From a virus: a stretch of 64,000 nucleotides of DNA. Below are positions 580-27,279 of this stretch, in pieces; position 1 is the first letter of the stretch, and each line of letters begins with the position of its first letter. The translations under genes and the position numbers were made by a program. The notes under the pieces were generated by a model. The model was not told the origin of the DNA, ran no database searches, and saw only the letters and a program-made list of their open reading frames with translations. The stretch is taken from positions 64,001-128,000 of the IMG/VR virus record IMGVR_UViG_3300042389_001478; one strand, written 5' to 3'.

Positions 580-3500
580 ATGGCAAAAGGATTTAATTTA
601 ACAGCGGAAATTAATTTACGAGGACCATCTAATATTAGATCGGTTGTTGCCGATATTAAAAGACAGGTAGGGTCTGTTAGTGTTGATGTCAGTCCAACGC
701 TCAATAGGGCTTCTGTTAGAACTATTGCTAATGATATTAGGCGTCAGATAGGAAATTTATCAGCAGAAATTAATGTAAGAGCTAATGCTGGCTCAATTAG
801 AAACTTATCAAGAGATATTCGACAGAGACTGGGAACATTAACTGCTGATGTTCAAGTCAGAGCAGATGCCTCGTCAATTAGAAGATCTGTTGCTAATATA
901 AGATCTCAATTTAGGAATATTAGCACCAATGTCGCAGTATCTGCATCGCCATCATCTATTAGACAAGCATCGTCAGCAATTAGGAGACAGCTTGGAAATA
1001 TTAATGCAAATGTCAGGGTTAATGTTTCCGCAGGATCAGTAAGACAAGCAGCAGCCAATATTCGTAGACAACTAGGCTCTATTAACACCACAGTTAACGT
1101 TGGAATCAATGCAGCGTCATTACGAGGCATTGGGGCATATACAGCAAATCTTACAAGATTAAATGCAACTTTAGCTCAAACTACAATTACTGCTACTAAT
1201 GCTGCCGGAGCAATTGCAACTTTAACCGCGGCTATGGGCGCTGCTGGACGAGTAAATCTTGGTCAAATCAATGTTAATCTTGGTAATGCTGGTAATGCTG
1301 CTAGAAATACTGCTAATAATATTCAGTTAGCTGGTAATGAAATTGAAAACTTCGGTCGTCAAGCGGGCTTGGCTATAAGGCGTTTTGCTGCTTTTAGTGT
1401 TGTTACGGGTGTGGTCTTTGGTATTACTAATGCTTTTAAGAATGGCGTTAGTGCTTTTATTGAATATGATCAGCAGCTTACCAGAATTAGCCAAGTTACC
1501 GGAGATGCCAAAGAAAGTCTTGGTAAAATTAATAGTACAATTAGTGAGCTCTCAACAAGCTTAGGTGTTTCATCTAAAGAATTAGCAGCAACATCAGTAA
1601 CGTTAGCTCAGGCAGGTTTAACAGCACGAGACACCGAGACTGCATTAAAGGCATTGGCCTTAAGTGCATTGGCTCCGTCTTTCGATGACATGAATCAGAC
1701 GGTAGAAGGCTCTATCGCATTAATGAGACAGTTCGGCATTTCCAGCAAAGAACTAGAAGGATCATTAGGATCAATCAACGCTGTTGCTGCAAAGTTCGCT
1801 GTCGAAGCTAGCGATATTATTACTGCCATTCAACGTACCGGTGGTGTGTTTGCTGCTGCTGGTAAAGGAGTTAGTGAAGGCACTAATGCTTTAAATGAGT
1901 TCATTGCTGTATTCACTAGTATTAGAGCAACAACTCGTGAAAGCGCAGAAACCATTGCTACTGGCTTAAGAACAATTTTTACAAGAATTCAGAGAGCCGA
2001 TACTATCGAGGCCCTCAAAGAGTTCGGCGTTACATTAACAGACTTAGAGGGTAAGTTCGTTGGACCATATATTGCTGTTCAAAGATTAAGTGAAGGATTA
2101 TCAAAACTGGATCCTAGAGATTTGAGCTTCTCTAGAATTGTGGAAGAGCTTGGTGGATTCCGACAGATTGGCAAGGTTCTACCACTTATTCAACAGTTCG
2201 CCACCGCACAAGACGCTTTGAGGGTTGCCCAGCAAGGACAAGGATCATTATCGGCCGACGCAGCCAAAGGACAAATGGCATTAGCAATTCAAATAGCAAA
2301 AGTTAGAGAAGAATTTTTAGCATTAATTAGAAGTGTTGGAAATACTGATAGTTTTCAAAATATGGTTAAGGTTGGACTAGACTTGGCCAGTGCCTTAATA
2401 AAGGTAGCAGATGCTGCTAAAGGATTAATTCCATTAGTTGGATTATTTGCGGCGTTCAGGGGAGCTCAAGCTATTACTCAATTTGCTGGTGGTTTTGGAA
2501 GAGGTTTTAGAGGAGCACCAACACAAAGAGCCTCAGAAGGTGGCCCTATTAGACACTTTGCTTCTGGAGGCTATGTTCCTGGTTTTGGTAACGGAGACAC
2601 TGTTTCTGCAAAATTAACTCCTGGCGAGTTTGTTATGAGCAAACCAGCTGTACGGTCTATTGGAGTTGGTAATCTTAGTAGAATGAATAAAGGCGATAGA
2701 GCTAGCAAATTTGATAAGGGTGGTCCAGTAACAGTATCCGCCTTATTAACTAGATCTGGAGGACCGTCAATCAGAAATGCTATTAATACTACTAATTTAG
2801 AACCAGATGATACAGTATCGATAAATATTGTTCCTAAACAAGTACCACTAAACCAGACCGACTTTTTAAATATATGGTTACGAGGTAATTCTTCTGCTAA
2901 AAAAGGAACAGGAAAATTCAAAAATTATGCTGGAATTAATGTTAGTCAAGAGAATAGAGATAGATTAAAAAATTTAGCAGGAAAAAATACAAAACAGCAA
3001 CAAGAAATTAAACGTGGTTATGGGGCCGGTATTTCTGAACAAGTGAGTATGCTACAAAGCGCGGAAGGAAGATGGGGGTTAGCATATGAAGAATTTTTGA
3101 TTAATAAACTTCGAGCTAATTGGACCAAAGCTAGTTCTAAAAACAACTACCCAGTTGATCTTGTTCAAAAACTAACAAATAATTCTATAAAGCGTATTGG
3201 AGAGGTTAAATTTCGCACGACACCTACTGAAGATATAGATCTTATTAGTAAGTTATTAAGATATCGAATAGAAAGAGGATCTATTAACAGATACTTTAGA
3301 GAAAATGAAGAAATTCCCAAAGACTTGGATAAAAATATAGGTTCGTTAGATTATTTTTGGGCTGGAAACTATAAAAAACAATTCTATAAGTTTATAGAAG
3401 AGAGACAAAAAATACAGGCTCCTGGTTTTGTTCGTGCGGCAGCTGGTGGACAAATACAAAGATTCCCTAGGGGCGGAAATGTTCAAAAACTAGCTAATGT

Positions 3501-6500
3501 TGGAGTAACCAAGGAAAAGAAACAGACTAATATAAATGAAACTGCTGCACAAGCTCTTCTCGAACAAAATGCAGGTAAATCTCCTGTTATTAGAAGAATA
3601 TTAAGTAAACCAAAAGCTGGTAGAGATTTTGCACAAATACTTAAAAAACAAGGAGTGACTATACCACCATTTCCAAAATTTGTGGGATCTGGAATGGCTA
3701 ACGCGGTTTTTGATATCGGAAATAAGAAAATGTTAAAAGTTTCTCTCACGGGCTTTGGCGATAATATGATGGCAGGAAATTTCTTTGGAGAGAATGTTGC
3801 TGAAAAAATGGGTATGACAGGTAATTATCAATTACCGATGGGTGTTCCTGGAGTAGCTGGATATTCATCTCATATTGATGCGGGAGTCTTGTCGTCTGCT
3901 ATTCAAGACAAAGCTGTTATGAAAATAAAAGGAAGAAGTAAAAATAAAGATGCTAACGAGCTAATCAAGCGATTGCGTAAACAAGAAGGACTTACAGGGA
4001 TTGATCTTCATAACGACAATATAGGATATAGATATAATCCCAAAACTAAAAAACAAGAACCAGCAATTATAGATGGTTTAGTAGTTCATGATGATAAATT
4101 ACCTCCTGGATTTGATTTTTCGAATCGTTTTAAAATTGGTGGAGAAGTACAGAGATTCCCTATTGGTGGAGAAGTTAGAAGAACCAAAAAAGAACGATAC
4201 AAAAAAATATCAGTAGCAGATGCAGAAAAGCTATCAGCTTCTCAGATTATAACCGGCCTTACTACAGGACAATCCGCTCCAGCTAGAGTAGGGGGTATGG
4301 ATGTTGTAACTATGAGAAAGATTCTCGGCCAACGCAATAGAACACCAGATGATCAACGCAAGAGAGATGAAATTCTAAATGCTTATACTAGAAGAATAAA
4401 TGGAGAAGTAGATCAACGTCTTGGAGTTACTAAGCAGAGACAAACAGCAGGATTACTATTTGGTATTGCTGGTTTGTACGGGTCTCCATTTGCCCCAACC
4501 GATATGGTTGTTGGAGATAAAGGAGAACTTACAAAACCCACAACCGTTCAGGTAATGGGTGGTGTTCCTCGTAAAAAATTAATGGATAGAGCTAATCTAA
4601 GTATTAATGACCTAGACATTTATGGTAAAGATTTTAAAAAGTCTGTTAAAAAAGGAGCTAAAAGATTATTAGTATCAGATATTCTTAGCCAACTAGGTTT
4701 AGGCAAAGCTCTTTATGCTGACTTTGATCGAACATTAGTGTTTGGTGCTGATGATCTTCCAGATATCCAGTCTTTTAATGACAAGAGAAAAGTGGGCAGG
4801 CAATTATTATCAAAAAAAGCTAGACTGAGCGTTCTTGGTCAAAAATTAAGAGATTTATTAGTAGCTAAGCCACAGCTCACACCATCTGTAAAAATATTAA
4901 CAGCAAGACCACGCTCTACACTTGGTCTTTTACAAGCTTTTCTTAGACGACAAAATCTTAATATACCTTCTTCTCAATTTACTGGGGTCGGTGGTAATAA
5001 TTTAAACGAAGCAGCAATAGCAAAATTAAAAGCTGCAGAATTACCTTCTGGATCAGTTTTAGTTGATGATAATGCAAAAAATATAAGAGCAGCAGAGCTA
5101 AAATCTAAAGCACTAAAAGCTCAAGGCGAAGCTGGTATTACAACATTTAGATATAAGAGCGCTAGGAGCCCACTAGATAAGCCGGGCGAAGATACTGCTG
5201 CTGGTCTTGCGTTCCAAGAATCATTAAGAGGACTTCTTTCAGAAAAAAGAGCAGTGGCCGCATTTGCTGAAACAGGAGGGAAGAGCATAGATTTCCCGCT
5301 AGGATTAGGAAGACGAGCAGCATTATTCGGACTAAAACCAAATATACCCACAGATGCTAAAAGAACATTAACTGGTCCATCAACAGCAAAAGAGAATATT
5401 ACTAATTATTTGAAAGCTAGATCATATTCTGCTGGCGGAGATATTCAAAAGTTTCCACAAGGAGGAACACCATCGCCGGGTGGACATTCCTCAAATATTG
5501 TACCAGCATTAGTTAGCACTGGAGAAGCTTACTTTCCACCAGAAGAAGCAAAAAATATAGGCTTAGACAAATTAAGAAAAATGAATCAAGCAGATCGTAA
5601 TGGCATGAAATCCTTTGCTCGGGGTGGTGTTAGTGTTTTCAGAGGTCCGGGATCAGGAACTAGTGATAGCATAGGACCAATAGGTTTGCCAGTAGGAAGC
5701 TTTATCGTTCGAGCAGCTGCAACAAAAGCTTTGGGTCTTAGTTCGGGTGGATCTGTTGGTAATGTACAAAAATTTGCCGCAGGAGGAGCTGCTCAAAGAT
5801 TATTTGTTGGAGGATTATTAAATCCACCACCAGCAGCTAGGCCAGATCTTGGTGGTATGAATGATTCTGAAGCTCGAAGAGTTGTTGGAGTAGTTAATAG
5901 CGTTAATCAGCAACTAGGACAATTAGCAGGAGTATTAGAAGAGCTTGGTGTTGCATCAGGAGATACTGCAAGGTTAATGCAAAGAGGAAGTCAGGCTACT
6001 TATGCTCAAGCTATTCAAGCGACAGAAGCTGATATTAGACGAGCCAGAATAGCAGGAGCATCAGCTCAACAAATAGCAGCTGCAGAAAGTGTGCTACGGG
6101 ATATTAGACAACAAGCTGATAGAGATATCAGAGCAAGAAGAGCATCTGTAGATACTCCGGGCGGAGCTAGAGCTTCCTTGGGTAGTTTAGGTGGACAAGA
6201 TTTACAGAGAATAGATTCTAGAGCCGATCAGCTACGTCAACAAATGATGGAAACAGAAAGAAATCGACTACAGAACCAAACTGTAACTCGCGGAGGAAGA
6301 ACAACAGCAAGATATTCTAATGAACAAGTCGAAGAAAGACTACAAAGACGAGCAGGAAGATTTAATAGACAATCCTACGAACAAGCAACTACTCAAGTTA
6401 CCGGCGGACGAGTCGATCTTGGTGCTGTTGGTTTAACTGGAGATGATGCTCAAAGATATATCCAACAAAGTATGAGAGACCGTAATACTTTAGCTCAGAT

Positions 6501-12500: not shown

Positions 12501-15500
12501 TGGTCAAGACTATCTTAATGAGAACGACCCTGCTACTACTCCAAATGAAAGAGCAGAATTCTTAGCATCTAATTTCGATGGTGCTTTATATACTACAGCA
12601 ACAGAAGCCCACAGACAACTTGGCGGATTAGCAAACTTTGGAGATATTCCTAATAGAGAATGGCTTATGGCTAGAGGTCAGGCAAAGATGCCCGATATGA
12701 AACCAGTAGTTAAACTTGCTACTGGTGGTATGGTTTATGCGTCTAATGGACAGTATGTTAATTTCCAACCAAGAGGAACTGATACTGTTCCTGCAATGTT
12801 AACGCCAGGAGAGTTCGTTGTTAATCGAAGTGCTACTCAACAAAATCTTCCGCTACTAAGAGCAATTAATAATGGAGCTGATGCTTATAGTATGGGCGGT
12901 GTAGTTTACGCTGCTGGAGGATTTGATCCTTCTCGAATGGCCCAAGGAGCATATCCGTCACAAAGTACTAGTCCTAAGCCATCAATGTGGAGTAGAATGT
13001 TTGGTGCTAGAAATCCTGGAGCTTTTAGACCACGCGGTATGTTTCCAACTTTTGGTGGTGCCGTCGGACATATGGAAAATGGGCTACACAAAGCTTTTGT
13101 TAGAACATCTGGATGGGCTGGTAGGCAGGTCGGAGATGTGGGGAGAGCATTTGGTAACATTGGACATGCTCCGATCAGACCAACTGCTATCCTTAATCAA
13201 TTAACCCAATGGCAGGCTGCGCAACAAGGGGCAATGTTTCCTGCCAGCACAAGTGGTGCTGCTTACCAGAGAATGCAGCAAAATGTACTTAAACAGCTGG
13301 CACAGTACAGTTCGGCTGCAACAAATTATAATGCTAGCAATACCCTATTAGCCAGAGCAGGAAGAGGAGCAACTAGTTTAGCCACTAAGGCCGTTGGAGG
13401 TACAGCAGCTTTCAACTCTGGAATTAATATATTGACTGAAGGATCAAGCGCTCTATATGGTTTTGGTAATGCTGCTTTAGGAGGACGTAATACATATGTA
13501 GATAGTAGACGAGAACAAGCTGCTCAAACCAATAATACTATTTTAGGAGGAGCAGCTACAGGATTTATGTCTCCAATTACCACTATGGCCCAGATGGGTT
13601 TTACTGTTGCTGAACTTAATGAAACTAGGAGAAGAGCTAGTAAAGGAGAAAGTTTAAATAGTGAAGGACGAAAGATATCTGTATCAAACATTGCTAATAG
13701 ACAATATTCTGGAGATGAAAGACATTTATCTGGATTAACAGCAGTAGAAGCTACTTATATTAGACAGATCATAAATTTAGAAAAAGCTTTAGCCAAAGAA
13801 AAAGTTGGGACTAAACGGTACGACCAGCTACAACAAAATTTAAATGATGCAAAATCTAGAAATGTTACAGAAAAAACTCGTGGTATGCTATGGGGTACCA
13901 CAAAAACTACTAGCAGAAAGGCCGGTCTTAGTAGTGGTGACGACGTATTAGACAAAGCTATTGATCAACATAGAGAATATGAGGTTAGATTAGAAGCACA
14001 AAGAGTTGCTCAGGCAGCTGCAGAAAAAGCAGAAGAAGCTAGACTAAAAGCTCAACAACAACAAGCTGAAGCTCAAAATAGAACAAGAGCTGCTGTTACG
14101 GTAGTGTCTAATGCTGGACAAGCAGCTTATAATTTTGGGGTCTCTATGTTTAATAAATTCAAAGAAGATAGAAAGAATGCTATAAATGCTGATAGATCTA
14201 AGAGAACAGCAGCAGCATCTCAGTATTTAGATAAGCCCGCAGTGCCAGATCTAATTAAAGATAGTCAAACTTTCAGAGACGAAAGACAAGCTGCTATCGA
14301 TGAAGTTCGTCGTTTGGATGGGGTTTATCAACAAGAGTCACAGCTAAATAAAAATAGAGGAGATAGCGAAGCAGAACTTAAACGATTAAAGGATTCATAC
14401 GACAAAGAACGAGAAGCCGCACTAGCAGCTGTTGCTAAAGTTGATAGTAAAATTATTGACAGAAATAAAGAAGCAGAAAAACTCAGCCCAGACGAAAGAC
14501 AAGCAGCATGGAAGTCATACAATGATAATCAAGCTAAAACAGCCAAAGATGAAGCATTAGCTCAAGCAAGATACCAAAGTAGAGTTGCTAAAACACAACT
14601 TAAAAAACAGGCCGACGGTCAATTGGCCATAGCAGAAATTACTAGAGTACCCAGACCAACAAAAGATATGAACCCTGAATCATTCTTTAGATGGTCAGAA
14701 AATGCTCGTAAGACATTAAATAGAAAATTCAAGCTGAGCGGAAATGATGAAAAAGACATGGCTATTTTAAGTGCTGCTGGATTATCTCCAGAAATAGCTA
14801 AAGAAGTTATCCAGCCTATCTCTAAAGAGAATAGCTCACTATTATTAGAAATGATGTCAACTAGCGGTAAATATAGTAAACAAGAACTAGGACTATTACA
14901 GCTTAGTGGAGATCAAATAGAACAGTTAACTAGAGCTAGCTCTGGTATGGGTGGCTCAGCCACCGCACAAATGACACTAGACGAAAGAAACAAAGTTCTG
15001 AAAAAACAAAGGGGCTTGGCAGTTAAAACTCAAAAGCAATTGAGTAGAATTGAAAAACAAATTGAGGCTGCTGAAAGACTTGGCCCAGAAGGAAGAATAC
15101 GTCGTCAATCCGCTATTCAACAACAACTATTAAGACAAGGATTAGTATCAGCATCTCAAGATGGTCCTGCTAATCAAGCTAGACTAGAACAATTAGGAAT
15201 GAATAAGGAAAGAGTTGGTTTCATATTCCAACAGCAAGGAAATCAACAAGGTGCTCCAGCAAATGGTATGAGTAACGGAGGAGTGGTTTATGCTGCTGGC
15301 GGAACATTGATTCCATATTCTCCAAGAGGAACCGACACTGTTCCTGCTATGCTAACGCCCGGAGAATTTGTTGTTAATGCTAAGGCCACAAGTCAAAATC
15401 TTCCATTGTTACAAAGTATTAATAAAAGTAGTGGAGGGGTAATTTATCGAGCGGAGGGTGGCGGAAGTGACGCTTTCTCTAACAGACAGCCGACCTCATC

Positions 15501-18500
15501 TGCAGAAAAATCAGGATCGATTAGAGCAACAGAATTAAATACTAGACTACAACAACAAATAGCTAATAATACAAAAAATACAGCCGATACTGTTCCAACT
15601 ATAGCAAAAATTACTAGTGAAACAGCAAATAAGCAAATACCGACATTATCTAATAAAACATCATCATTAGAACAAAATAATGCTAAGGCTTTTTCCAACA
15701 TAAATACAAAAGCTACAGATATTAATAAAATAACTTCAACTATTCCACAATTTGACAAAACAGCAAATGAAAAATTAGATGAATTATTAAGAAGAACTGA
15801 AGGGTTGCCAGAGACAGTTGCACAAATTGTTACTTTGATTATTGGGGATATACAACAGAGACAGCCTGGAGGTAATTTTGCAGGATTTGGGTTGAATCAA
15901 GGCCCTAATGCAATACAAGCAATAAATGATGCTATTAGAAATAGGTTTGATAATATTCTTAATGCTGCCGCTTTACAGATGGGCAGGGGCTTTAGTAGTG
16001 GAGGTATGGTCTATGCTTCAAATGGAATGATGATTCCTTATGAACCTAGAGGTACTGATACTGTTCCGGCGATGCTAACTCCGGGTGAGTTTGTGGTGAA
16101 CAGAGTTGCTACCCAAGCCAATTTACCTTTATTACAAGCTATTAATAAGAGTAAAGGTGGGAATATCAAAAAGCTTGCTGAGGGTGGAGTAGTTTATGCT
16201 GCTACTGGCGGAACAATGCCAACTAAACCAGACGGTTCTGCTGATACTAATTTTGATGCTCGCAAAGCTCAACGAAAAGCATCTTTAGAGAGACAGATTC
16301 GAACACAGGAAGAAAAAGAATTTAAGAAATTAGGTATCTTATACAATGATACCACAGACAAAGAAGATATCATACAAGCTCTTAAAAAACAAACTCAGCC
16401 TTATCCTTATCCTTTAAATATTGATTATTATCTAAGACAATTTAGTAGGGATAAAGCATTTGACATAGACCTAAAAAGATTTCCAAGAATTAGCGAAGCG
16501 GCAAAATCAATCTTAGCCAAACAAGAACAACCAAAAGCTAATCCTTTTGATATGGGTCAGCAACCAGCAGCAACTCCACAATCACTCTCAAGAGGTGGAG
16601 TAGTTTATGCTTCTGGTGGCGGAGAGATGACAAAAATTCCAGAGCCACCAATAGCTATGCCATTCGGATTTGCTCCACAAAAGGGATTTGCTGTTCCTTT
16701 GGATAAAACTAAGGCCATACAAGCACATCAACAATCAGAAAAATACCCTGATCCTTTTACTCCAGAAGCTGATAGGGCCTGGAGACAATTTGACTTGAGT
16801 CCAGTAGAAAGTATGGCGGATGATGCTCATGAATTTTTACAAGAAAAATTAGGAGGAAACAAACAAATTCCCCTTAATGGTCCACCCATGCCATTTGGTG
16901 TCGGTCCTAGAGCTAGGCATATGGATAACACTGTTGCTGGACAACTTCAAGGATTGTATTATTCGTTAATACCTGATAATACCAAAGGTGGTCAGGGTTT
17001 AGAAAATTATTTAGACCAATATAAAAATCATTTTGCTCCAAACGCACCATATGGGGCTCAGCCGATCTTACCAAATAAAGATTCGTTGATGCCTCAAATG
17101 AAAGCTAAGGGTGGAGTAGTTTATGCTCAAGAAGGATTTGATCCATCAAGACCATTAAATCCTATGATGAATCGTCAAGGAAAGGGTTCAGCTTCCACAT
17201 TAACCTCATCTCCAATTAGTAATTTTAATAATGAGAAGTTAGCTGAAGAAGGTAAAGCTTTTATGTACGGAGCTGCTAAGTCCGTACTTCCAGGTTTAGC
17301 TGGTTTGGGTGCTGGACTTTTAGGACTACCCACCACGGGTCCTGGTGGATTTGCTATTGGCTTAGGAGCAGGGACCGCAGTATATCAAGCTCAAGAAAAT
17401 TATTTGAATGCTTTTGCTCCAGAAACAAATAGACAGATGAAAGATATCACCGAGGAGCACTGGCAGGCTTCATTATTGGGATCTATAGCTAGTGGTTTTG
17501 GTGTTGATAAGGCGGGTCGTAAGCTACTCTCTCCTTTTATGAAAAATACTCTCAGAATGCCCGCCACACTTCCTAATAATAATGCTTCTGTAAGACCAGA
17601 TATTAAGAGTGCTAGTCAAGAAGCTATGGAGGAATTTTCTTTAAGAAGTAGACCAGCAGCTAGCGCCCCATTAGATGTACCAAAAGCTGATAAAGCTTTA
17701 CCGCTTCTTCGTAGTCTAGAAGAAAAGGGTGTTATAAAAACTACTCAATCATCATCAACATCTAAATTTAACAGTGATAACAGACGAGACCTATATCAGA
17801 TTGATCAAATTTTATATCACGGCACAGGACATACTATAGATGATATAGATCCATCCAAAGGCGGAGGTATATTAGGCGGTGGTTTCTATACTGGATTTGA
17901 AGGTCACGAAGGAATCGCTGCAAGATTTGCAGCAATGGGTAAAGCAAATAAGCATGTGTATCCAGTAAGAGTCAGTGGTGGTATAGGTGATTTTCCTGAG
18001 GCTACAGAAACTCTTGGCGGTAACTCTAAAATTTTATCAGTCATAGAAAAATTATTTACTGAACAGAACTTATCTAGACAAACTCGTCAGTTCTCAGGCA
18101 AATGGGGGAAAACAGGTCCTATTTATGACAACGTAGATTTAAATCTGAAAGACATGACATTCAAAGACGTTGTTGATTTGCTTAAGAATAGATATTCTGA
18201 AACCATAAAGAAAACTCTAGAGCAAGAAAATGGTATTTCTTTATCAAAAATATCGCCTCAAGAAATTGCTACAAGAGCAGATAAATTAGGTGAAGAACAG
18301 GTAAGACAACTATTGGTTAAAGCTGGTATACCAGGAGCCAAAGATACAACAGGAAAATTATCGGGTACTGGCGAACCTATGGTCTCCATATATGATCAAA
18401 GCAGGCTAAGCAAAGAAGGAAAACCTTTTGTTCCAAATAGTTTGAAACCCCAGATGAAAGCCAATGGTGGTGTAATTTATGCTCAAGATGGTATGAGAAT

Positions 18501-21279
18501 CCCGTTTAATTTAAATGATATTGCTGATAAAAATCCAGCAAAAGTGGGATACTCAACATCAGCAGAAGAACGATATATGGAAAGATGGAAGAAAACACAT
18601 ACCGACTTACTAGCAGACCCGTCAGAAGGTCCTGGTATGTTGGGTGCTCCGTTTCATGAAAGATTTTCAGCTGGCTTAAATATGCTTGCTGATATTGGTT
18701 CAGCAAAAATGGCTGGAGCAAAAGCTACAGGAGCAAGAGGTCAAAAATTTGCTAGTGTGCCAAGATCAGGCAGATCCATGAGGAAACCACCGACCTCTAT
18801 AGTGAAACCAAGTGCTCCTTCTGTAGGAGATCTTAAAGCTCTGCAATATAGTCAAGAAAATATACCAAATTTATTAGGAGATGGAGAGAGACCATTATTT
18901 AGTAAAGATTTTCCAAAAACCGTTAAACCAAAAGATATTGAAGCAAAATTAGCCCAAGATAGAACTGAAATAGAAAGTATAGCAAAATTACTCTCTGAAA
19001 GACTAGGAAGACCGGTTGATCCAGTGGAAGCTAAGGATATGTTAGTTAAAAGAATGACTGATATGATGATTGAAGCTAAGTCTGGCGAAGATAATATGAA
19101 AGGTAGAACTGTTGATAGTAAAACATTTATAATATCTTCTTCACAAGGAAGAACTAATCGAGCTTTTGTAGAAGCGTCTCCTAAAGCATCATTATTACGC
19201 AAAATAGCCTCAAAACTATCTTTTGGTAAAATAGATAGATTATCTCCAAAACAACAATTAGATAGAGACGAACTATTTGCCATACAACGAATACAGAGTT
19301 ATATGTATGATCAGTTACATCCTGAAAGAATGGGTGGTTTAATTATTCCTTCTCGTAAACTATCTTTTGCTGAAGCTTATGATGAAATAGATTCATTACA
19401 ACCAGGAAAATATGGTTATTTCAAAGGGCTAACTGAACCCGGAGGCAAAGCATTAAAAAATCTTCTATCCAGCGGAAGAATAGATAAAGAAACATTGATG
19501 ACTCAACGTAAACAAGTATCAGATAAGTTAATATCTGAAGGTAAATTAGATCCACAAGATCTACCAGAAGCAAGAATGGCGGAAGACCCCACAAAATCTC
19601 AAATGATAATGCAGAGAGTAAACAGAAATTCTGATATGATAATTAGATATCAAGGAAATGATGTCAGATTAAATCCAGATATTTTAAAATTAGCAGATAA
19701 AGGTGTCTACCAGTCACCCGTAACCACAAATGATCCACAACAACAAATATACCCTACATCTCCATTAGATTTTTATCAGAAATTTATGGCTCCACAGAAT
19801 AAATCATCTGGTGGTGTAATTTATGCTTCAACAGGAACATTAGTAAATTATCAGCCTCGTGGCACCGACACAGTACCCGCAATGCTTACGCCCGGTGAGT
19901 TTGTTGTAAACAGAGCCTCTACTCAAAAACACCTTCCACTATTACAATCTATTAATAGTGGGAACTATGAAAATGGCGGAATAGTATCATACTATCGAAG
20001 AGGTGGTCGTATTACTGCAGCAGAACTAGCATCAAATAGAAGAGAATATTTAGATCGCAAAAAAGCAGAGAAAAAGCAAAGAGATGATGATAAAAAAGCT
20101 AGAGAAGATAATTTTGCAGCAGCACGACAACAACAGATTGAAGACCGTAGAGCTAGATCTACAAGTGGCATCTCTGTGCAAACCAGGGGCGGGTCCTATG
20201 CTCGATCTGCAATGAGTTCTAGTCAAGCACAACCAAACCAACCACAACAAACAGCACAGAGCACCATAGCACAAGCTATTATCAATGTGGCTCAAGCAGC
20301 TATAAATATTGCAAATGCTACTACTAGTTCTAGCTCCTCTAATAATAATCAAACCGGCACTCCGTCTTATATGACTAGTAGTATTAATGGACCAAGAACT
20401 CAACGAACTCAGGATTTCTTTGAAGCTAGAAGAATAAATAGAAACAGCAGAGAACAAGAAGAGAATGACAGAACATTATATAGAAGAAGAAATCGCAGGC
20501 CATCAGACACAACAGCTTATAGTAATGCTTTAGCTAGTAGAAATACTCCCGTGGCTGCTAATAATCAAAATTCCCCAGCACAAAATAGCATATTCGGTAA
20601 CTTGCTACAAGCCATACAAAGCATGTTTGGATCGGCCCAAACAGCAACGAGAGGTGCACAGAATCAACAAACTGGAACACCAAGATATCTAACAAGCTCT
20701 ATCAATACTCCCGGCGTTCAGCGAACACAAGAATTCTTTGAGATGAGAAGAATTAACCAAGAAGCTCAACAGGCTGAAAGAGACAGAAGAAATCAAAGAG
20801 CTGCAGTGGCACAAGCGGCCAATAGTCCAAATGTTCCATCTGGCCAAAATCCAGCACAAAATAATAACATATGGACAGTATTAAATAATAATGCTCTCCA
20901 ATTTAGTAATGCTTTAAATACAGCTACCACCGCTTTAAACACAGCCTCCGCCGCGATACAGCAATATAATCAACAATTGGCTGGTGGTGTATCTAATAAA
21001 GGAAACCCTGATAAAACCAATCTTGATGGAATTAGCCTATTTACAAGCACATTCCAATCATTTATTGATCAATTGAAAAATATTAATCCGGTAATAAATA
21101 TGAGAGGAAATCATACAGTAACAGTAAATTTCGGTTCTGGTGCAGATGTTTTTGCAAGAATGGAAGGAAGAGTTAAGGAGTTTGTTATTGATCAAATTAA
21201 TGCCGGATTAAATAATGTAAATACTACACTAAGAGATAGCACCGAAGGCTCTATTGATAATGTTCGAAATTTAGCTTAA
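580..21279 (+). CDS. Giant (6,899 aa) tail tape measure protein with embedded effector/enzyme cassettes
   Basis: Uninterrupted ORF with GAGG RBS. TP901-type tape-measure core (AFIEYDQQLTRISQVTG...INAVAAKFAVEASDIITAIQRTGG), hydrophobic segments, long Ala/Gln/Arg-rich helical stretches, TMP-type GTDTVPAMLTPGEFVVN motifs, and position ahead of tail/baseplate genes. Confidence 0.92.
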   Translation: MAKGFNLTAEINLRGPSNIRSVVADIKRQVGSVSVDVSPTLNRASVRTIANDIRRQIGNLSAEINVRANAGSIRNLSRDIRQRLGTLTADVQVRADASSIRRSVANIRSQFRNISTNVAVSASPSSIRQASSAIRRQLGNINANVRVNVSAGSVRQAAANIRRQLGSINTTVNVGINAASLRGIGAYTANLTRLNATLAQTTITATNAAGAIATLTAAMGAAGRVNLGQINVNLGNAGNAARNTANNIQLAGNEIENFGRQAGLAIRRFAAFSVVTGVVFGITNAFKNGVSAFIEYDQQLTRISQVTGDAKESLGKINSTISELSTSLGVSSKELAATSVTLAQAGLTARDTETALKALALSALAPSFDDMNQTVEGSIALMRQFGISSKELEGSLGSINAVAAKFAVEASDIITAIQRTGGVFAAAGKGVSEGTNALNEFIAVFTSIRATTRESAETIATGLRTIFTRIQRADTIEALKEFGVTLTDLEGKFVGPYIAVQRLSEGLSKLDPRDLSFSRIVEELGGFRQIGKVLPLIQQFATAQDALRVAQQGQGSLSADAAKGQMALAIQIAKVREEFLALIRSVGNTDSFQNMVKVGLDLASALIKVADAAKGLIPLVGLFAAFRGAQAITQFAGGFGRGFRGAPTQRASEGGPIRHFASGGYVPGFGNGDTVSAKLTPGEFVMSKPAVRSIGVGNLSRMNKGDRASKFDKGGPVTVSALLTRSGGPSIRNAINTTNLEPDDTVSINIVPKQVPLNQTDFLNIWLRGNSSAKKGTGKFKNYAGINVSQENRDRLKNLAGKNTKQQQEIKRGYGAGISEQVSMLQSAEGRWGLAYEEFLINKLRANWTKASSKNNYPVDLVQKLTNNSIKRIGEVKFRTTPTEDIDLISKLLRYRIERGSINRYFRENEEIPKDLDKNIGSLDYFWAGNYKKQFYKFIEERQKIQAPGFVRAAAGGQIQRFPRGGNVQKLANVGVTKEKKQTNINETAAQALLEQNAGKSPVIRRILSKPKAGRDFAQILKKQGVTIPPFPKFVGSGMANAVFDIGNKKMLKVSLTGFGDNMMAGNFFGENVAEKMGMTGNYQLPMGVPGVAGYSSHIDAGVLSSAIQDKAVMKIKGRSKNKDANELIKRLRKQEGLTGIDLHNDNIGYRYNPKTKKQEPAIIDGLVVHDDKLPPGFDFSNRFKIGGEVQRFPIGGEVRRTKKERYKKISVADAEKLSASQIITGLTTGQSAPARVGGMDVVTMRKILGQRNRTPDDQRKRDEILNAYTRRINGEVDQRLGVTKQRQTAGLLFGIAGLYGSPFAPTDMVVGDKGELTKPTTVQVMGGVPRKKLMDRANLSINDLDIYGKDFKKSVKKGAKRLLVSDILSQLGLGKALYADFDRTLVFGADDLPDIQSFNDKRKVGRQLLSKKARLSVLGQKLRDLLVAKPQLTPSVKILTARPRSTLGLLQAFLRRQNLNIPSSQFTGVGGNNLNEAAIAKLKAAELPSGSVLVDDNAKNIRAAELKSKALKAQGEAGITTFRYKSARSPLDKPGEDTAAGLAFQESLRGLLSEKRAVAAFAETGGKSIDFPLGLGRRAALFGLKPNIPTDAKRTLTGPSTAKENITNYLKARSYSAGGDIQKFPQGGTPSPGGHSSNIVPALVSTGEAYFPPEEAKNIGLDKLRKMNQADRNGMKSFARGGVSVFRGPGSGTSDSIGPIGLPVGSFIVRAAATKALGLSSGGSVGNVQKFAAGGAAQRLFVGGLLNPPPAARPDLGGMNDSEARRVVGVVNSVNQQLGQLAGVLEELGVASGDTARLMQRGSQATYAQAIQATEADIRRARIAGASAQQIAAAESVLRDIRQQADRDIRARRASVDTPGGARASLGSLGGQDLQRIDSRADQLRQQMMETERNRLQNQTVTRGGRTTARYSNEQVEERLQRRAGRFNRQSYEQATTQVTGGRVDLGAVGLTGDDAQRYIQQSMRDRNTLAQMDRAYIPRRAAQIRQQLEAERGVGATARERAALARQALRMAEQEARDRANTARAAARAAGAAGPGGGPESGMARSMGMAFGLQMVGSLLAQQINPESSSSNAQISAGLQGGTNMLATGTMIGSGVMEMFPAMTRLLGPITILTTVALAAGQALIDARNAAIEFEKKLADKRVQDAMERVGQGFDKLSKNIKDIKIQDDITNNLIEASRNVRKSVEADKTTAKAFWANITDVFTSNTSSNLAEAAQNVYNSKPAAGRTDADRNALAAVTINTQAAAASRSKILEKEGVSAYLSTTSMGQFLSGAGSQSSSRAEERRSSLSLGMIPETAREDSKKYVEVAQSMQRIIEDKLRSGLSVRELLTAPKHEFEQIARTMAMADQATHANILAIQQDTNLTTAEKEAKIKNIATLYAEDKIRKSAKSVDTEKASKNFEKNINNMSRSLERMFQNMDQAIERTSFSLRQMSQDMDLISASLGGQAKTGDTSLKSMNILQNPRAYGGLETNAARDQASSFFTGERNLVKGLLSVGDNLETSIMSSINKTLTDNPAASNEQIGINIEKQVTKQIAKLQLPPDVGNKLGEQVKTALDEMRKRGDENLNFDDLMEKIPGLSKVLESGKRAQESALKALEHWQSSLNSYSEKINQLIDLQIDTNERLRRSSELVIRGNMEVSRALGKDVSVSSVRSARNVGIAQQTGGLTDADAIAKNIMSLEGQRRSLESSANSAGNRGLAGANDFVKFKSGLLDTNVALRENIAALKSLAENGDVASAALGKIQEAQQKQASKVGFIEKLVTSTPEEVNSLERAMARLQNNINGQLNTINNSVGAQKAYNDAIAQGATNAEAMSAAQVAFAGERKETLGALNDLLPFLSNNQQGNNIKANVLESMARESGVGINPMMQEVINSLRNPQADPQTQAAMQQYQQAISEQARANTLLAQLNSTLANDIATKSAAALSQALTGASIKFQSSQLDDIAKNVRSISLRGGDQPVPAAGKANGGMIYAAAGTMVNFQPKGTDTVPAMLTPGEFVVNRAATSRNLPLLQSINSGGYSKGGSVNYYSSGGYVSSVFKSEYLDSKNLENSEKQYIDPEDKIIKDIISGDDKPFMIRSGWKNFTRLQSPANQYHSAQFKKTYVGRVGGYFGFGLDETNDKIPFETSGKLVPGSAPIIDINSIDGEYVYKNTPPPNLWPAGNRELGYLLSDRKFNTKNIAKNDLSKYRDIINGLISVVPPGRVWGTDPSSFEFSSPDDLSGGQSGFPYNPNLSSAKPVGLILSRGATDIGQQATESTDGIQKIFNNSRAFTGQSEEASDRAGNTTRIYGDIQGTVSAGKLTNAAKLAQRGFINDVPTDNDTFKWITETKKISELRDTQKENLSLLKNTTTDIFGNKINWLKNTEKNNKLISLQQKLQKIYEGGSLIEDLDVSERELIDNTQLRLDDASGKFSLLSKQLEPQLAKRVAELSSRPIDQQLPKDKENARIATLTRIGGAAGWADGDPFPINFSENGLTKPTVSFPWIANIEPEFFLQNIKEQQEQQAKDRASGKDYGFNISSLGLQPYAAKLPAPLDKVSFNYKAAYTKYSGRLFDLRQKELDNTRPLNDAFIIDPKHDDALNIFKNANFPDKSFFTGFPGPYQPQDLAKRISVKDPQSILDYMQALRNNDPNADALAGKINGVSLALGPALLKVMNDKPLYLPDDLYYGIDNTFQNLDISPFVVASAKDAAGQLGRLAKEKSSQINTPGSKTQSISEADLGPTVQRIAQASLGIFGRRPGIPSGYLYSQFGRALSNISDPIKAKNTASGISGVFSNLVKQIHGMAPRNSREFAALRDSNILATGASAVFNKLASGSTNYIKSFLGGGSSIENLFRSLGSGSFFNEMGSQQFSEDFTKQLGADLKGSKLAKIGADGSIDLTDMNEQDVPKNYQGLVDLAINPYHEFGNRSVRQGIFQKLMTDIPNFRANHNVTDPKTGTILEKRQTQLPLFGPAALKMIMTNLNNLSQWYGGNGAWAGQDYLNENDPATTPNERAEFLASNFDGALYTTATEAHRQLGGLANFGDIPNREWLMARGQAKMPDMKPVVKLATGGMVYASNGQYVNFQPRGTDTVPAMLTPGEFVVNRSATQQNLPLLRAINNGADAYSMGGVVYAAGGFDPSRMAQGAYPSQSTSPKPSMWSRMFGARNPGAFRPRGMFPTFGGAVGHMENGLHKAFVRTSGWAGRQVGDVGRAFGNIGHAPIRPTAILNQLTQWQAAQQGAMFPASTSGAAYQRMQQNVLKQLAQYSSAATNYNASNTLLARAGRGATSLATKAVGGTAAFNSGINILTEGSSALYGFGNAALGGRNTYVDSRREQAAQTNNTILGGAATGFMSPITTMAQMGFTVAELNETRRRASKGESLNSEGRKISVSNIANRQYSGDERHLSGLTAVEATYIRQIINLEKALAKEKVGTKRYDQLQQNLNDAKSRNVTEKTRGMLWGTTKTTSRKAGLSSGDDVLDKAIDQHREYEVRLEAQRVAQAAAEKAEEARLKAQQQQAEAQNRTRAAVTVVSNAGQAAYNFGVSMFNKFKEDRKNAINADRSKRTAAASQYLDKPAVPDLIKDSQTFRDERQAAIDEVRRLDGVYQQESQLNKNRGDSEAELKRLKDSYDKEREAALAAVAKVDSKIIDRNKEAEKLSPDERQAAWKSYNDNQAKTAKDEALAQARYQSRVAKTQLKKQADGQLAIAEITRVPRPTKDMNPESFFRWSENARKTLNRKFKLSGNDEKDMAILSAAGLSPEIAKEVIQPISKENSSLLLEMMSTSGKYSKQELGLLQLSGDQIEQLTRASSGMGGSATAQMTLDERNKVLKKQRGLAVKTQKQLSRIEKQIEAAERLGPEGRIRRQSAIQQQLLRQGLVSASQDGPANQARLEQLGMNKERVGFIFQQQGNQQGAPANGMSNGGVVYAAGGTLIPYSPRGTDTVPAMLTPGEFVVNAKATSQNLPLLQSINKSSGGVIYRAEGGGSDAFSNRQPTSSAEKSGSIRATELNTRLQQQIANNTKNTADTVPTIAKITSETANKQIPTLSNKTSSLEQNNAKAFSNINTKATDINKITSTIPQFDKTANEKLDELLRRTEGLPETVAQIVTLIIGDIQQRQPGGNFAGFGLNQGPNAIQAINDAIRNRFDNILNAAALQMGRGFSSGGMVYASNGMMIPYEPRGTDTVPAMLTPGEFVVNRVATQANLPLLQAINKSKGGNIKKLAEGGVVYAATGGTMPTKPDGSADTNFDARKAQRKASLERQIRTQEEKEFKKLGILYNDTTDKEDIIQALKKQTQPYPYPLNIDYYLRQFSRDKAFDIDLKRFPRISEAAKSILAKQEQPKANPFDMGQQPAATPQSLSRGGVVYASGGGEMTKIPEPPIAMPFGFAPQKGFAVPLDKTKAIQAHQQSEKYPDPFTPEADRAWRQFDLSPVESMADDAHEFLQEKLGGNKQIPLNGPPMPFGVGPRARHMDNTVAGQLQGLYYSLIPDNTKGGQGLENYLDQYKNHFAPNAPYGAQPILPNKDSLMPQMKAKGGVVYAQEGFDPSRPLNPMMNRQGKGSASTLTSSPISNFNNEKLAEEGKAFMYGAAKSVLPGLAGLGAGLLGLPTTGPGGFAIGLGAGTAVYQAQENYLNAFAPETNRQMKDITEEHWQASLLGSIASGFGVDKAGRKLLSPFMKNTLRMPATLPNNNASVRPDIKSASQEAMEEFSLRSRPAASAPLDVPKADKALPLLRSLEEKGVIKTTQSSSTSKFNSDNRRDLYQIDQILYHGTGHTIDDIDPSKGGGILGGGFYTGFEGHEGIAARFAAMGKANKHVYPVRVSGGIGDFPEATETLGGNSKILSVIEKLFTEQNLSRQTRQFSGKWGKTGPIYDNVDLNLKDMTFKDVVDLLKNRYSETIKKTLEQENGISLSKISPQEIATRADKLGEEQVRQLLVKAGIPGAKDTTGKLSGTGEPMVSIYDQSRLSKEGKPFVPNSLKPQMKANGGVIYAQDGMRIPFNLNDIADKNPAKVGYSTSAEERYMERWKKTHTDLLADPSEGPGMLGAPFHERFSAGLNMLADIGSAKMAGAKATGARGQKFASVPRSGRSMRKPPTSIVKPSAPSVGDLKALQYSQENIPNLLGDGERPLFSKDFPKTVKPKDIEAKLAQDRTEIESIAKLLSERLGRPVDPVEAKDMLVKRMTDMMIEAKSGEDNMKGRTVDSKTFIISSSQGRTNRAFVEASPKASLLRKIASKLSFGKIDRLSPKQQLDRDELFAIQRIQSYMYDQLHPERMGGLIIPSRKLSFAEAYDEIDSLQPGKYGYFKGLTEPGGKALKNLLSSGRIDKETLMTQRKQVSDKLISEGKLDPQDLPEARMAEDPTKSQMIMQRVNRNSDMIIRYQGNDVRLNPDILKLADKGVYQSPVTTNDPQQQIYPTSPLDFYQKFMAPQNKSSGGVIYASTGTLVNYQPRGTDTVPAMLTPGEFVVNRASTQKHLPLLQSINSGNYENGGIVSYYRRGGRITAAELASNRREYLDRKKAEKKQRDDDKKAREDNFAAARQQQIEDRRARSTSGISVQTRGGSYARSAMSSSQAQPNQPQQTAQSTIAQAIINVAQAAINIANATTSSSSSNNNQTGTPSYMTSSINGPRTQRTQDFFEARRINRNSREQEENDRTLYRRRNRRPSDTTAYSNALASRNTPVAANNQNSPAQNSIFGNLLQAIQSMFGSAQTATRGAQNQQTGTPRYLTSSINTPGVQRTQEFFEMRRINQEAQQAERDRRNQRAAVAQAANSPNVPSGQNPAQNNNIWTVLNNNALQFSNALNTATTALNTASAAIQQYNQQLAGGVSNKGNPDKTNLDGISLFTSTFQSFIDQLKNINPVINMRGNHTVTVNFGSGADVFARMEGRVKEFVIDQINAGLNNVNTTLRDSTEGSIDNVRNLA
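631..1116 (+). repeat. Six tandem 27-aa (81-bp) Arg-rich repeats at the TMP N-terminus
   Basis: Units start at 631, 712, 793, 874, 955, 1036; consensus S[IV]R..a..IR.QlG.i.a.V.V.a... Confidence 0.9.
1450..2300 (+). other. Phage tail tape-measure core domain (TP901/PhageMin_Tail-like)
   Basis: F..YD..L..I..VTG...I.ELS..LGVSS.ELA.....LAQAG...A...L.ALA pattern typical of this domain. Confidence 0.85.
3073..3380 (+). other. PD-(D/E)xK nuclease-like domain inside TMP
   Basis: WGLAYEEFL (helix Glu) ... NYPVD (Asp at 3157) ... IGEVKF (E 3202, K 3208). Confidence 0.65.
3676..4090 (+). other. Protein-kinase-like domain inside TMP
   Basis: Gly-rich loop VGSGMANAVF (3682-), beta3 Lys in MLKV (3736), catalytic loop DLHNDN (4003-4020), Mg-binding IIDG (Asp at 4072). 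Confidence 0.75.
4708..5130 (+). other. HAD-superfamily phosphatase domain inside TMP
   Basis: Motif I LYADFDRTL (DxDxT, 4720-4734), motif II ILTAR (4900), candidate motif III Lys in AKLKAA, motif IV VLVDDNAKNI (5065-5070). Confidence 0.85.
5200..5420 (+). other. Second, compact restriction-endonuclease-fold-like domain inside TMP
   Basis: GLAFQE ... SIDFP ... PTDAKRT matches an E...D...(D/E)xK spacing, with Gln at the usual Glu position. Confidence 0.4.
9472..9627 (+). repeat. TMP linker repeat copy 1 (GG..YA..G...GTDTVPAMLTPGEFVVN...LPLL..IN)
   Basis: KANGGMIYAAAGTMVNFQPKGTDTVPAMLTPGEFVVNRAATSRNLPLLQSIN. Confidence 0.95.
12715..12870 (+). repeat. TMP linker repeat copy 2
   Basis: LATGGMVYASNGQYVNFQPRGTDTVPAMLTPGEFVVNRSATQQNLPLLRAIN. 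Confidence 0.95.
15268..15423 (+). repeat. TMP linker repeat copy 3
   Basis: MSNGGVVYAAGGTLIPYSPRGTDTVPAMLTPGEFVVNAKATSQNLPLLQSIN. Confidence 0.95.
15991..16146 (+). repeat. TMP linker repeat copy 4
   Basis: FSSGGMVYASNGMMIPYEPRGTDTVPAMLTPGEFVVNRVATQANLPLLQAIN. Confidence 0.95.
17809..18410 (+). other. ADP-ribosyltransferase-like domain (His-type, polyvalent-protein ART-like) inside TMP
   Basis: ILYHGT (His at 17818) ... IDPSKGGGILGGGFYTG ... IAARFA ... HVYPVRV, then a helical insert, then AGIPGAKD ... GEPMVSIYDQSRL. Confidence 0.75.
19801..19956 (+). repeat. TMP linker repeat copy 5
   Basis: KSSGGVIYASTGTLVNYQPRGTDTVPAMLTPGEFVVNRASTQKHLPLLQSIN. Confidence 0.95.
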
Positions 21280-25648: not shown

Positions 25649-25673
25649 GACTTTTTAATTTAGGAAATTATTT

Positions 25674-27263
25674 ATGGCAAATGGAGCTTATATAAAATAC
25701 GGAAACTTTAGTTTTCTTGCTAATAGTGGATATCCAATTCCATCAATAAGCATATCTCAAGAATACCAAAGAGATGGAGCTGGCCGCCAGATAGGAGCTA
25801 CTGTTTCTATTGCTTTAGAAGGAAAGATTTATAGTGGTAGTGGAGATAAAGGTTTTTCTCATTTACTTACTAAAGAAAGCGGTTTAAGACAAGCTTTTAG
25901 TTATGATGGTAATAACTTTGTTGTTGGGTGTAGTGATGGAACTCAAACCACCTTTAGTGGTATAAAAGTTTCTCGATACAATGCTAGTAAAACCGAAAAT
26001 AATTGGACAACCACTATAGACTATAGTATTGATTTACAATCAGAAGTAGCAAATACTGGTAGCGGTATTTTCAACGTTACTAGCACTCAAGATGATTGGA
26101 GCATAGAAACGATTGATGAATTTTCATATTCACGATCTCCAGTAAGCATGAGCCTTTTGGGTTTTGGATCTAATTTTCAGTTTCCACAAGGAAAAAATTA
26201 TCCTTTTTATAGAATCAGTCGCACAATAGGAGCAGTTGGTAAGTTTATACCAACAAGCGGCTCTGGTGGCAACGTATCTCTTACTGGTATCAATACCGCA
26301 GTCTCTAACGCTAAAAACTGGGTTAATTATCATCTTCCACTAAATCCAACCTATTCTGGTATTATTAAAAGTTTATCTTTGTATAATTTTGTTAGAAATG
26401 TCAATAGTAGTGAAATTGAAGGCTCTTATAGAATAACAGATAATTGGATAGCTATTCCTAGTGGGTTAAGTGGGCTATACACCGAAAGCTTTAATATTGA
26501 AAGCTCATTAGACTCTTCATTAATGAGAACCGTAACCCTCAATGGTACTGTGAAAGGATTAGAGCTATTTAATAGTGGTAATTATAATAATTCATCACTA
26601 GATAATTTATCTAATAATATTAAATTAACAAGTAATGGTTCTACAAAATTTGATAACGCCATTAGCGGATACTCCTCTGTTAAAAACTTGCTATATGGTA
26701 GAGCACAGACTTTTATGGTTAGCGGCAGTGCTGCGACGGCAACCTTTTATGGTGGACTCGGAAGTGTTGTCGCCGGACAATTTGCTAATAGAACCGAAAG
26801 TCCTTTGAACCCTATTCCAGTAAGCGCTACCGAAGGGTTTAATCCAGCAGAAGGAAGCATAACATATAGTTGGTCTTTTAATAATCGTCCTATGAACATT
26901 ATTAGCGGAGCTATTAGCGAAACATTAACCGTTGATGATACATTTCCAACACAAGTAGTAGGAAGTATTTATGTGCTTGGTAGAAGATTAGGACCAGTTT
27001 TACAGGATATCGGCACAGTAACTTCTTATAGTAGATCGGTTACGATGGAAGTGGTTTTCCCCAAACCATCTAGTCTTAGAAATATAACATTTCCTGGAGA
27101 TGCTTATAGATCTATAACAGGAATAATCGATTCGTTAGATCCTAAAAATCTATATGCTGACGGAATACGATCATTTGTTAAGCAAAATAGTGAAAACTGG
27201 AATGCAACCGAAGGAAGATTTACCAAGACTAAAGCGTGGGAATATACAAGATGCATCTACTAA
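25674..27263 (+). CDS. Putative tail/baseplate structural protein, 529 aa
   Basis: Beta-rich S/T/G/N composition, tight coupling within the tail operon, repeated strand patterns (YSIDL, YRISRTI, YRITDNW, ITYSWSF). No specific family recognised. Confidence 0.5.
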   Translation: MANGAYIKYGNFSFLANSGYPIPSISISQEYQRDGAGRQIGATVSIALEGKIYSGSGDKGFSHLLTKESGLRQAFSYDGNNFVVGCSDGTQTTFSGIKVSRYNASKTENNWTTTIDYSIDLQSEVANTGSGIFNVTSTQDDWSIETIDEFSYSRSPVSMSLLGFGSNFQFPQGKNYPFYRISRTIGAVGKFIPTSGSGGNVSLTGINTAVSNAKNWVNYHLPLNPTYSGIIKSLSLYNFVRNVNSSEIEGSYRITDNWIAIPSGLSGLYTESFNIESSLDSSLMRTVTLNGTVKGLELFNSGNYNNSSLDNLSNNIKLTSNGSTKFDNAISGYSSVKNLLYGRAQTFMVSGSAATATFYGGLGSVVAGQFANRTESPLNPIPVSATEGFNPAEGSITYSWSFNNRPMNIISGAISETLTVDDTFPTQVVGSIYVLGRRLGPVLQDIGTVTSYSRSVTMEVVFPKPSSLRNITFPGDAYRSITGIIDSLDPKNLYADGIRSFVKQNSENWNATEGRFTKTKAWEYTRCIY

Positions 27264-27279
27264 TTAGCTAGAGGAAATA

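Follow-up and report, generated by a model that had tools for sequence, protein, structure and literature searches.

What is the short protein element that recurs along a giant phage tail protein, at the borders of its modules? The question is raised by a 64,000-nucleotide stretch of viral DNA (positions 64,001 to 128,000 of the IMG/VR record IMGVR_UViG_3300042389_001478), here called the window, which is part of a 192,497-bp virus record that was judged complete. One unbroken open reading frame (ORF) in the window encodes a protein of 6,899 amino acids (aa), recognised by its sequence as a tape measure protein (TMP) of the TP901 or PhageMin_Tail type, and all copies of the repeated element, referred to below as the joint, lie inside it. 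From the comparisons described here, the joint is a widespread and unnamed TMP element, ancient and strongly constrained. The reading favoured here, to which we give about even credence, is that the joint is a partner-dependent junction element of TMPs that has been reused in this protein as the border of every cassette.

The assignment of the ORF comes from its N-terminal part, where a Pfam domain and three TMP families of the PHROG database (phrog_28, 167 and 4211, all within the N-terminal ~650 aa) find their matches; expectation values are given as E. The hydrophobic segment and the long helix expected of a TP901-type TMP are both found, with hydrophobic stretches at aa 262-283, 605-625 and 2108-2128 in a Kyte-Doolittle (KD) scan and a ~1,200-aa helical module (M4) that is kept in 109 relatives.

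580-21279, + strand: ORF of the giant TMP, 6,899 aa, with PhageMin_Tail (PF10145) and the PHROG TMP families at the N-terminus
1537-2115, + strand: PhageMin_Tail core of the TMP (aa 320-512), Pfam PF10145, E 1e-24

The original prediction, made from the DNA letters and translations, named five near-identical copies of the joint at nucleotides (nt) 9472, 12715, 15268, 15991 and 19801, and a regular-expression scan bore this out: the five strong copies begin at aa 2965, 4046, 4897, 5138 and 6408, and each unit is about 70 aa long. The spacing of 17 codons from the first Gly of the GG pair to GTDT, also proposed there, is exact in all five, and the 17-residue core GTDTVPAMLTPGEFVVN is identical in every one of them. 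The anatomy of the joint consists of an [FYK]-A-x-GG strand, a loop, a β-hairpin (DTVPAML-TPG-EFVV), an amphipathic helix (NLPLLxxIN) and one or two further GG strands. Three degenerate copies had been proposed as well, and all are real: the one at aa 654-720 was recovered by a hidden Markov model (HMM) of the copies and by hhalign, and the two at aa ~1634-1735 are kept in relatives and were modelled by AlphaFold2, within aa 1180-1740, as a β-hairpin plus helix. Shorter motifs of the same kind, which had been noticed elsewhere in the protein, are found in numbers far over chance. The pattern GGx[VI] occurs 29 times in the TMP compared with 5.5 times in shuffled sequence (shuffle maximum, 14), [FYLK]xxGGx[VI] 22 times compared with 1.1, and GG[VIML][VI]YA 10 times compared with 0. 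The full units and the shorter junctions, with the evidence for each, are as follows.

2539-2739, + strand: first, lambda-type joint copy (aa 654-720); hit of the copy HMM, with BLASTP and hhalign matches to lambda gpH
3445-3483, + strand: double-GG mini-joint GGxIQRFPxGGxV (aa 956-968); motif scan, with homology ends clustering at aa 950-974
4138-4176, + strand: double-GG mini-joint (aa 1187-1199); homology starts cluster at aa 1175-1199, and the predicted local distance difference test score (pLDDT) is ~25, disordered in the model
5434-5784, + strand: mini-joint followed by two degenerate joint copies (aa 1619-1735); kept in relatives, each a hairpin then a helix (pLDDT 50-65), homology starts at aa 1600-1649
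9472-9699, + strand: strong joint copy 1 (aa 2965-3040); copy HMM 115 bits, 91-97% identity to the same-position copy in the relatives P0003-P0005
12715-12924, + strand: strong joint copy 2 (aa 4046-4115); motif scan, HMM and same-position identity
15268-15465, + strand: strong joint copy 3 (aa 4897-4962); motif scan, HMM and same-position identity
15991-16209, + strand: strong joint copy 4 (aa 5138-5210); motif scan, HMM and same-position identity
16594-16620, + strand: short junction GGVVYASGG (aa 5339-5347), which opens a variable cassette; homology ends at aa 5325-5374
17110-17136, + strand: short junction GGVVYAQEG (aa 5511-5519); the block beginning here is found elsewhere in P0004
18466-18492, + strand: short junction GGVIYAQDG (aa 5963-5971); the block at aa 5963-6085 maps upstream of the previous block in P0004
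19801-20019, + strand: strong joint copy 5 (aa 6408-6480), in the place canonical for the last copy, ahead of the C-terminal domain; motif scan, HMM and same-position identity

The likeness of the copies had been attributed to purifying selection on the protein rather than to a recent duplication of the DNA, and this view is upheld by substitution ratios, by saturated synonymous sites and by positional orthology. Over the 52 core codons, the ratio of nonsynonymous to synonymous substitution (dN/dS) among the copies is 0.08-0.26, and the proportion of synonymous differences (pS), at 0.60-0.76, has reached saturation. Copies of the invariant 17-mer differ at 7-12 of their ~13 synonymous sites and have a nucleotide identity of 0.786, compared with 0.818 +/- 0.017 expected from random draws on the gene's own codon usage, where 2.8% of the simulations gave a lower value; identical runs shared by two copies reach 14 nt at most. 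Beyond the invariant core, comparison of a copy with its same-position counterpart in the closest relatives (P0003-P0005) gives 91-97% identity, and comparison with copies from other positions or from the same protein 50-68%, and these position-specific identities led to the rejection of concerted evolution or gene conversion among the copies. Because they have positional orthologues in relatives and saturated synonymous sites, the joint copies are best described, at the level of sequence, as old paralogues, each of them separately constrained and free of gene conversion. For codon usage, the five 51-nt cores (window 9532-19911) are richer in the rare codons ACG, CCC, GAC, GAG and AAC than the rest of the gene; these rare codons and the low mutual identity of the cores possibly reflect selection against deletion-prone internal DNA repeats.

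The joint is repeated in many proteins other than this one. Full-length relatives comprise more than 120 TMPs of 3,800-7,900 aa, on contigs of up to 250 kb, and the copy HMM found the unit in 118 of 120 giant TMPs, with 2-8 strong copies in each. Because multiple copies occur in these giant TMPs and also in 75 IMG/VR loci (2-8 copies per ORF), serial use of the joint is seen as typical of this uncultured lineage and not as special to this genome. Among cultivable phages, Nodularia phage vB_NpeS-2AV2 has a TMP of 3,404 aa in which two copies stand in tandem. The profile of the copies matched 10,929 cluster representatives among 1.84 billion proteins at E<=1e-3, and 611 of these at E<=1e-30, a score for which several copies are needed. 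In ordinary TMPs the motif was expected to occur usually once, and this agrees with the TM4-type version being found at 1,143 places in 1,049 cultured-phage records. In 549 copies the two glycines of the GG pair are invariant, the distance of 17 residues from GG to GTDT is kept in 72%, position -2 from GG is A or S in 71%, and position -3 is basic in 41% and bulky hydrophobic in 46%. In 98 of 116 relatives, 150-300 aa separate the start of the last strong copy from the C-terminus; in the TMP of the window this distance is 490 aa because of a duplication in the Q/N-rich region that follows the joint.

The connection with phage lambda is made through the first copy. This type of copy, with counterparts in 31 relatives, aligns both with the strong copies (hhalign 99.7%, E 2e-25) and with residues 730-785 of lambda gpH (hhalign 95.8%, E 6.5e-9; BLASTP identity of 58% over 24 aa). 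On these alignments the first copy bridges the strong copies to the lambda element, with homology across the GG strand, the hairpin, the helix and the second GG strand. Like the joint, gpH ~730-785 has a GG strand (FATGG), a hairpin ending in GEFV, a helix (IGVGNLxxL) and a further GG strand (YATGG), and, like the first copy and the residues before it (aa 605-720), it follows a hydrophobic Gly-rich stretch.

2392-2514, + strand: stretch rich in Gly and hydrophobic residues (aa 605-645), shortly before the first joint, like lambda gpH 690-727; KD scan

Internal copies 1-4 are neither preceded by such a stretch nor located 100-300 aa from the C-terminus. Unlike the giant TMP, lambda gpH has a single copy and lacks cargo cassettes, and the hairpin sequence is PAGIVHRGEFV in gpH and DTVPAMLTPGEFV in the giant TMP. 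The Pfam family Tape_meas_lam_C spans gpH 627-701 and lies outside the joint element. Maturation cleaves gpH to give gpH* (about residues 1-710) and gpHC, as described in a 2025 study of Ur-lambda, where gpH ~690-817 is unresolved in the maps and the cut site and the protease are not known (PMC12617516). Since gpH* ends at about residue 710 and the element occupies 730-785, the lambda element would open gpHC, immediately behind the region of the cut.

Residues ~700-760 of TM4 gp17 also match the joint profile (36.7 bits), and this element is found directly upstream of the characterised Mt3 peptidoglycan hydrolase motif (PMC1796659), so that the order is joint, then cargo. When the TM4 segment was used as a phmmer query against PDB entries, it detected two copies in Douge gp16 (965-1027 and 1410-1460 of 1,699 residues) and one segment of JBD30 gp46 (1019-1053 of 1,158), and only the extreme C-terminus is modelled in the JBD30 and Douge structures. 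TM4, cluster K and related TMPs, as well as Douge, carry one or two copies of the element, beside one or two small motifs that act on the wall; the giant TMP differs from them in having five strong and three weak copies and a HAD phosphatase cassette that has no obvious wall target. Residues 1022-1066 of JBD30 gp46 are predicted to form a hook made of helices and a short β-hairpin, and its authors speculate, by analogy with T5 pb2*, that once the C-terminal domain has been released this hook keeps the TMP anchored in the baseplate (PMC11445458). The searches above show true homology between the JBD30 segment and the joint, and the segment's predicted helices and short hairpin recall the models obtained here; the role of the hook is a speculation drawn from AlphaFold. 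Another virion protein with the identical core is the tail protein of S-SCSM1 (a T4-like cyanophage), where the core lies ~40 aa before a Pfam glucosaminidase domain. The cut in T5 pb2 falls behind R1127, with AEGGMMY and the muralytic fragment immediately following (PMC10038345), and the C-terminal anchor of pb2* (1085-1127) is a positional analogue of the joint, being located after a hydrophobic stretch and before the cut and the enzyme. T5 pb2 was rejected as a homologue: RAEGGMMY...GTEVV looks alike by eye, and a six-frame scan of the T5 tail region with the HMM gave no match.

Module boundaries of orthologues were suspected to coincide with the motif, and in the comparisons made here they fall at it. 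Between the TMP of the window and its closest relatives, collinear blocks of high identity break at aa ~704-715, ~1611-1614, ~5196-5224 and ~6405-6408, and every major breakpoint lies at a unit or a mini-joint. In P0004, the blocks at aa 5490-5723 and 5963-6085, which open at short GGV[VI]YAQxG junctions, are present in swapped order. Over all relatives, block ends cluster just after units (aa 700-724, 3025-3074, 4100-4124 and 5200-5224) and block starts just before them (aa 1175-1199, 1600-1649, 4875-4899, 5125-5149 and 5500-5524). An all-against-family test with the 45 closest proteins gave 1,125 distinct block ends, of which 37% are no more than 25 aa away from an HMM-defined unit; for random positions the figure is 13% (maximum of 15% in 500 trials). 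The enrichment at unit edges is about 3-fold, with peaks at -20 to +10 and at +50 to +100 from the unit start. The modules differ in how widely they occur: besides M4 and its 109 relatives, the HAD-containing module is found in 66 relatives, the ~1,000-aa module between copies 1 and 2 in 44, and the remaining modules in 2-13 each, an occurrence that, as far as sequence comparison goes, fits a conserved backbone plus variable cassettes. The module between copies 1 and 2 (aa 3036-4048, window 9685-12723) holds these two joints at a near-constant spacing of 1,040-1,100 aa in relatives, and no Pfam family was found in seven homologues of it (six, plus the window's own).

What the joints delimit is best seen in one cassette. 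The original prediction placed every enzyme domain between two motifs, which stands for a HAD phosphatase enclosed by the mini-joint at aa 1187-1199 and the degenerate units at aa 1619-1735, while the kinase-, nuclease- and ART-like readings of other modules were made by eye and find no support in Pfam or in phmmer searches of PDB sequences. ART and EF-hand Pfam domains are present in some relatives.

4684-5151, + strand: HAD-superfamily phosphatase-like cassette (aa 1369-1524); motifs, AlphaFold2 pLDDT 83-94 and Foldseek

The DxDxT motif (D1381, D1383, T1385), K1484, D1496 and D1497 are invariant across 15 sequences, and the model matches HAD structures in Foldseek with E from 1e-4 to 1e-3, the best being the HAD domain of the Legionella effector Lem4 (1e-4), together with e(P4) acid phosphatase, phosphoserine phosphatase and T4 Pnkp. 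By its motifs and its model, the segment is a HAD phosphatase-like domain and the sole verified enzyme fold in the TMP. Pfam searches with the whole protein and with single modules revealed no peptidase family. A stretch modelled with confidence as helical shortly precedes the HAD domain, and in it aa 1235-1271 (window 4282-4392) show a weak GapR-like DNA-binding match (PF10073, E 0.005; PDB 6cfy UPF0335, E 0.23), a hint that phosphatase and DNA-binding helix are paired in the cassette.

The fold of the joint itself was approached with two AlphaFold2 models. For one unit, with an alignment of 69 sequences, the mean pLDDT is 62 and the predicted template modelling score (pTM) is 0.30; the strands are not formed, and the helix RAATSRNLPLLQSIN is the only confident part. 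In the second model, of aa 1180-1740, the degenerate copies appear with modest confidence as a β-hairpin followed by helices, and the double-GG mini-joint is disordered. A Pfam scan of the five copies at E up to 10 returned no family, and the profiles of the copies found no relative among PDB sequences. Because AlphaFold2 yields at best a hairpin plus a helix, the joint is, in these models, a non-autonomous element and no independent spacer domain.

Taken together, this anatomy is consistent with a junction that depends on a partner, and from it we infer the mechanistic steps that lie beyond the sequence. In ordinary TMPs the element appears once or twice, between the helical or hydrophobic ruler-and-channel part and a distal part, which is either a hub-binding C-terminus or an embedded wall-degrading enzyme. 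The joint would fold only against its partner, which may be the sister chains of the TMP bundle or the wall of the hub or tube (compare the JBD30 hook), and it would mark the end of one TMP segment and the start of the next, separately handled segment. In giant TMPs the element is reused serially, with segments bounded by a full unit or by the GG strand alone. The protein thus consists of a conserved backbone (N-terminal core, HAD cassette, ~1,200-aa ruler and ~1,000-aa module) plus variable cassettes, and the joints may act in retention, ordered release or cutting during tail maturation or ejection.

Several points weigh against the junction reading. The element is unresolved in the lambda, JBD30 and Douge maps, and the JBD30 hook is itself an AlphaFold prediction. 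The partner is hypothetical, and the neighbouring tail genes are without a recognisable family. The remaining 63% of breakpoints lie away from HMM-defined units. Moreover, a binding element need not recur at every cassette, and a cutting signal would explain the seriality more directly.

Such a signal is the strongest of the other explanations, and we consider it possible, though clearly short of an even chance. According to it, every joint specifies proteolysis at the GG strand or shortly before it, and the TMP would be a polyprotein from which single cassettes are released, by a host or phage protease or by self-cleavage, either as the tail matures or once the protein has been ejected. Each cassette border of a polyprotein must carry a signal, and it is at these borders that the joints are found; the invariant GG in the 549 copies, together with the small residue at position -2, is compatible with a cleavage site. 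The lambda homologue adjoins the region where gpH* and gpHC are separated (PMC12617516), the T5 pb2 cut lies at the analogous position before AEGGMMY (PMC10038345), TMP cleavage has been inferred in other phages (PMC11972413), and TM4 gp17 is probably processed (PMC1796659). However, none of the TMPs with the true element has a mapped cut, and T5 pb2 is not detectably homologous. The residues at position -3, split between basic (41%) and bulky hydrophobic (46%), show no single P1 preference, and ~50 conserved residues are far above the needs of a protease site. The GG-specific proteases C39 (PF03412) and C48 (PF02902) are absent from the 192-kb record, and no Pfam peptidase is found in the TMP. 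Among the protease families looked for, the only one found is of the ClpP family (PF00574, 59 bits), at record positions 150842-151318 (locus L086), outside the window.

The processing and junction readings overlap, as the same element could both dock and be cut. In such a combination the joint might, tentatively, be a self-contained "hold here, cut here" module, and the tail tube would store and inject a string of separate effectors. In this reading, to which we give the same credence as to the cutting signal, each copy would be cleaved at its GG strand by a host protease or by the protein itself, and the element would supply the determinant, long sought, of the maturation cleavage of TMPs in lambda (gpH to gpH* and gpHC) and other phages.

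A role of the units as recombination anchors is improbable as the main explanation. Here the units would be the only DNA shared by diverged relatives, cassettes would be exchanged by homologous or relaxed-homology recombination, and any role of the protein would be secondary. In a blastn comparison of the gene with the 75 related loci, depth is 48 inside the units and 2.3 outside, breakpoints flank the units, and cassette order differs between close relatives, all of which would be expected of an anchor. Yet this explanation leaves the invariance of the amino acids, alongside saturated synonymous sites, without a cause, and borders at linkers are expected in any viable chimera. The units are the main islands of DNA similarity between genomes, and this similarity is a by-product of protein constraint. 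Within the genome, the homology anchor for cassette exchange that the original prediction had considered is refuted because of the short shared runs (at most 14 identical nt in a row), the identity below the random-codon expectation (0.786 vs 0.818, p~0.03) and the positional orthologues without concerted evolution or gene conversion; a role as DNA anchor between genomes is possible.

An autonomous small folded spacer that separates neighbouring cassettes sterically, also suggested originally, is very unlikely, since the constant length and the preserved strand and helix pattern that would suit it are outweighed by the poor single-unit model without strands (pLDDT 62, pTM 0.30), by the lack of any Pfam family or PDB relative in the searches above, and by the 17 invariant residues, which a passive spacer would not hold.

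Of the known systems with comparable architecture, polyvalent proteins (Iyer et al. 2017, PMC5512222) and MARTX effector arrays resemble the giant TMP in their many unrelated effector-like modules, in the mosaic exchange of these modules and in being one protein that enters the host with DNA. The polyvalent-protein paper makes no mention of tape measure proteins or of any linker (PMC5512222). For polyvalent proteins the processing enzyme is believed to be an embedded MPTase, and for MARTX arrays a CPD, whereas no peptidase domain was found in the giant TMP. The Sle1-type TMP-related effectors of actinobacterial contractile injection systems are alike in combining a TMP-derived scaffold with an exchangeable domain that is ejected from the tail tube; they differ in having one C-terminal domain, in the lack of any described repeated joint and in not belonging to a phage (PMC13277306).

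TMPs with one embedded enzyme, such as TM4 Mt3 and T5 pb2C, and the maturation cleavage of TMPs are already known, and no paper describing the joint element or giant multi-cassette TMPs was found in the literature. In lambda, the cut site, the protease and the purpose of gpH cleavage are still not known after 50 years (PMC12617516). The repeated and ultra-conserved copies described here sharply define an element of ~55-75 residues at the corresponding spot in lambda, TM4 and JBD30, and they name the residues that are now open to mutation, namely the two glycines of GG, the hairpin's D and E and the LPLL helix. Hundreds of giant TMPs that swap cassettes at the joint constitute a natural experiment. 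If joints dock or cut, these phages would use the tail lumen to inject several cargoes, and the joint would serve as a portable connector by which foreign proteins could be loaded into phage tails.

The surroundings of the gene and the two ends of the protein add some minor observations. A megablast search of cultured phages gave no match to this DNA, and a single TMP module used as query in IMG/VR found no close relative. The ORFs flanking the TMP gene have no PHROG match; downstream, window 21296-41141 contains four very large ORFs (1,450, 529, 1,858 and 2,760 aa), presumably tail tip or fibre genes, for which a PHROG scan at E<=1e-3 gave no match. The public gene call P0002 (6,681 aa) omits the first 218 aa of the ORF that starts with the ATG at 580. 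At the N-terminus of the TMP, aa ~20-190 (window ~640-1150) contain about six tandem repeats of ~27 aa, seen by eye in the translation, with the pattern ..SIRxxxxxIRRQLGxxxxxVxVxxxx... In the Q/N-rich C-terminal region, aa ~6590-6760 (window ~20340-20850), a segment of ~40 aa is duplicated internally and reads QTGTPxYxTSSINxPxxQRTQxFFExRRIN...

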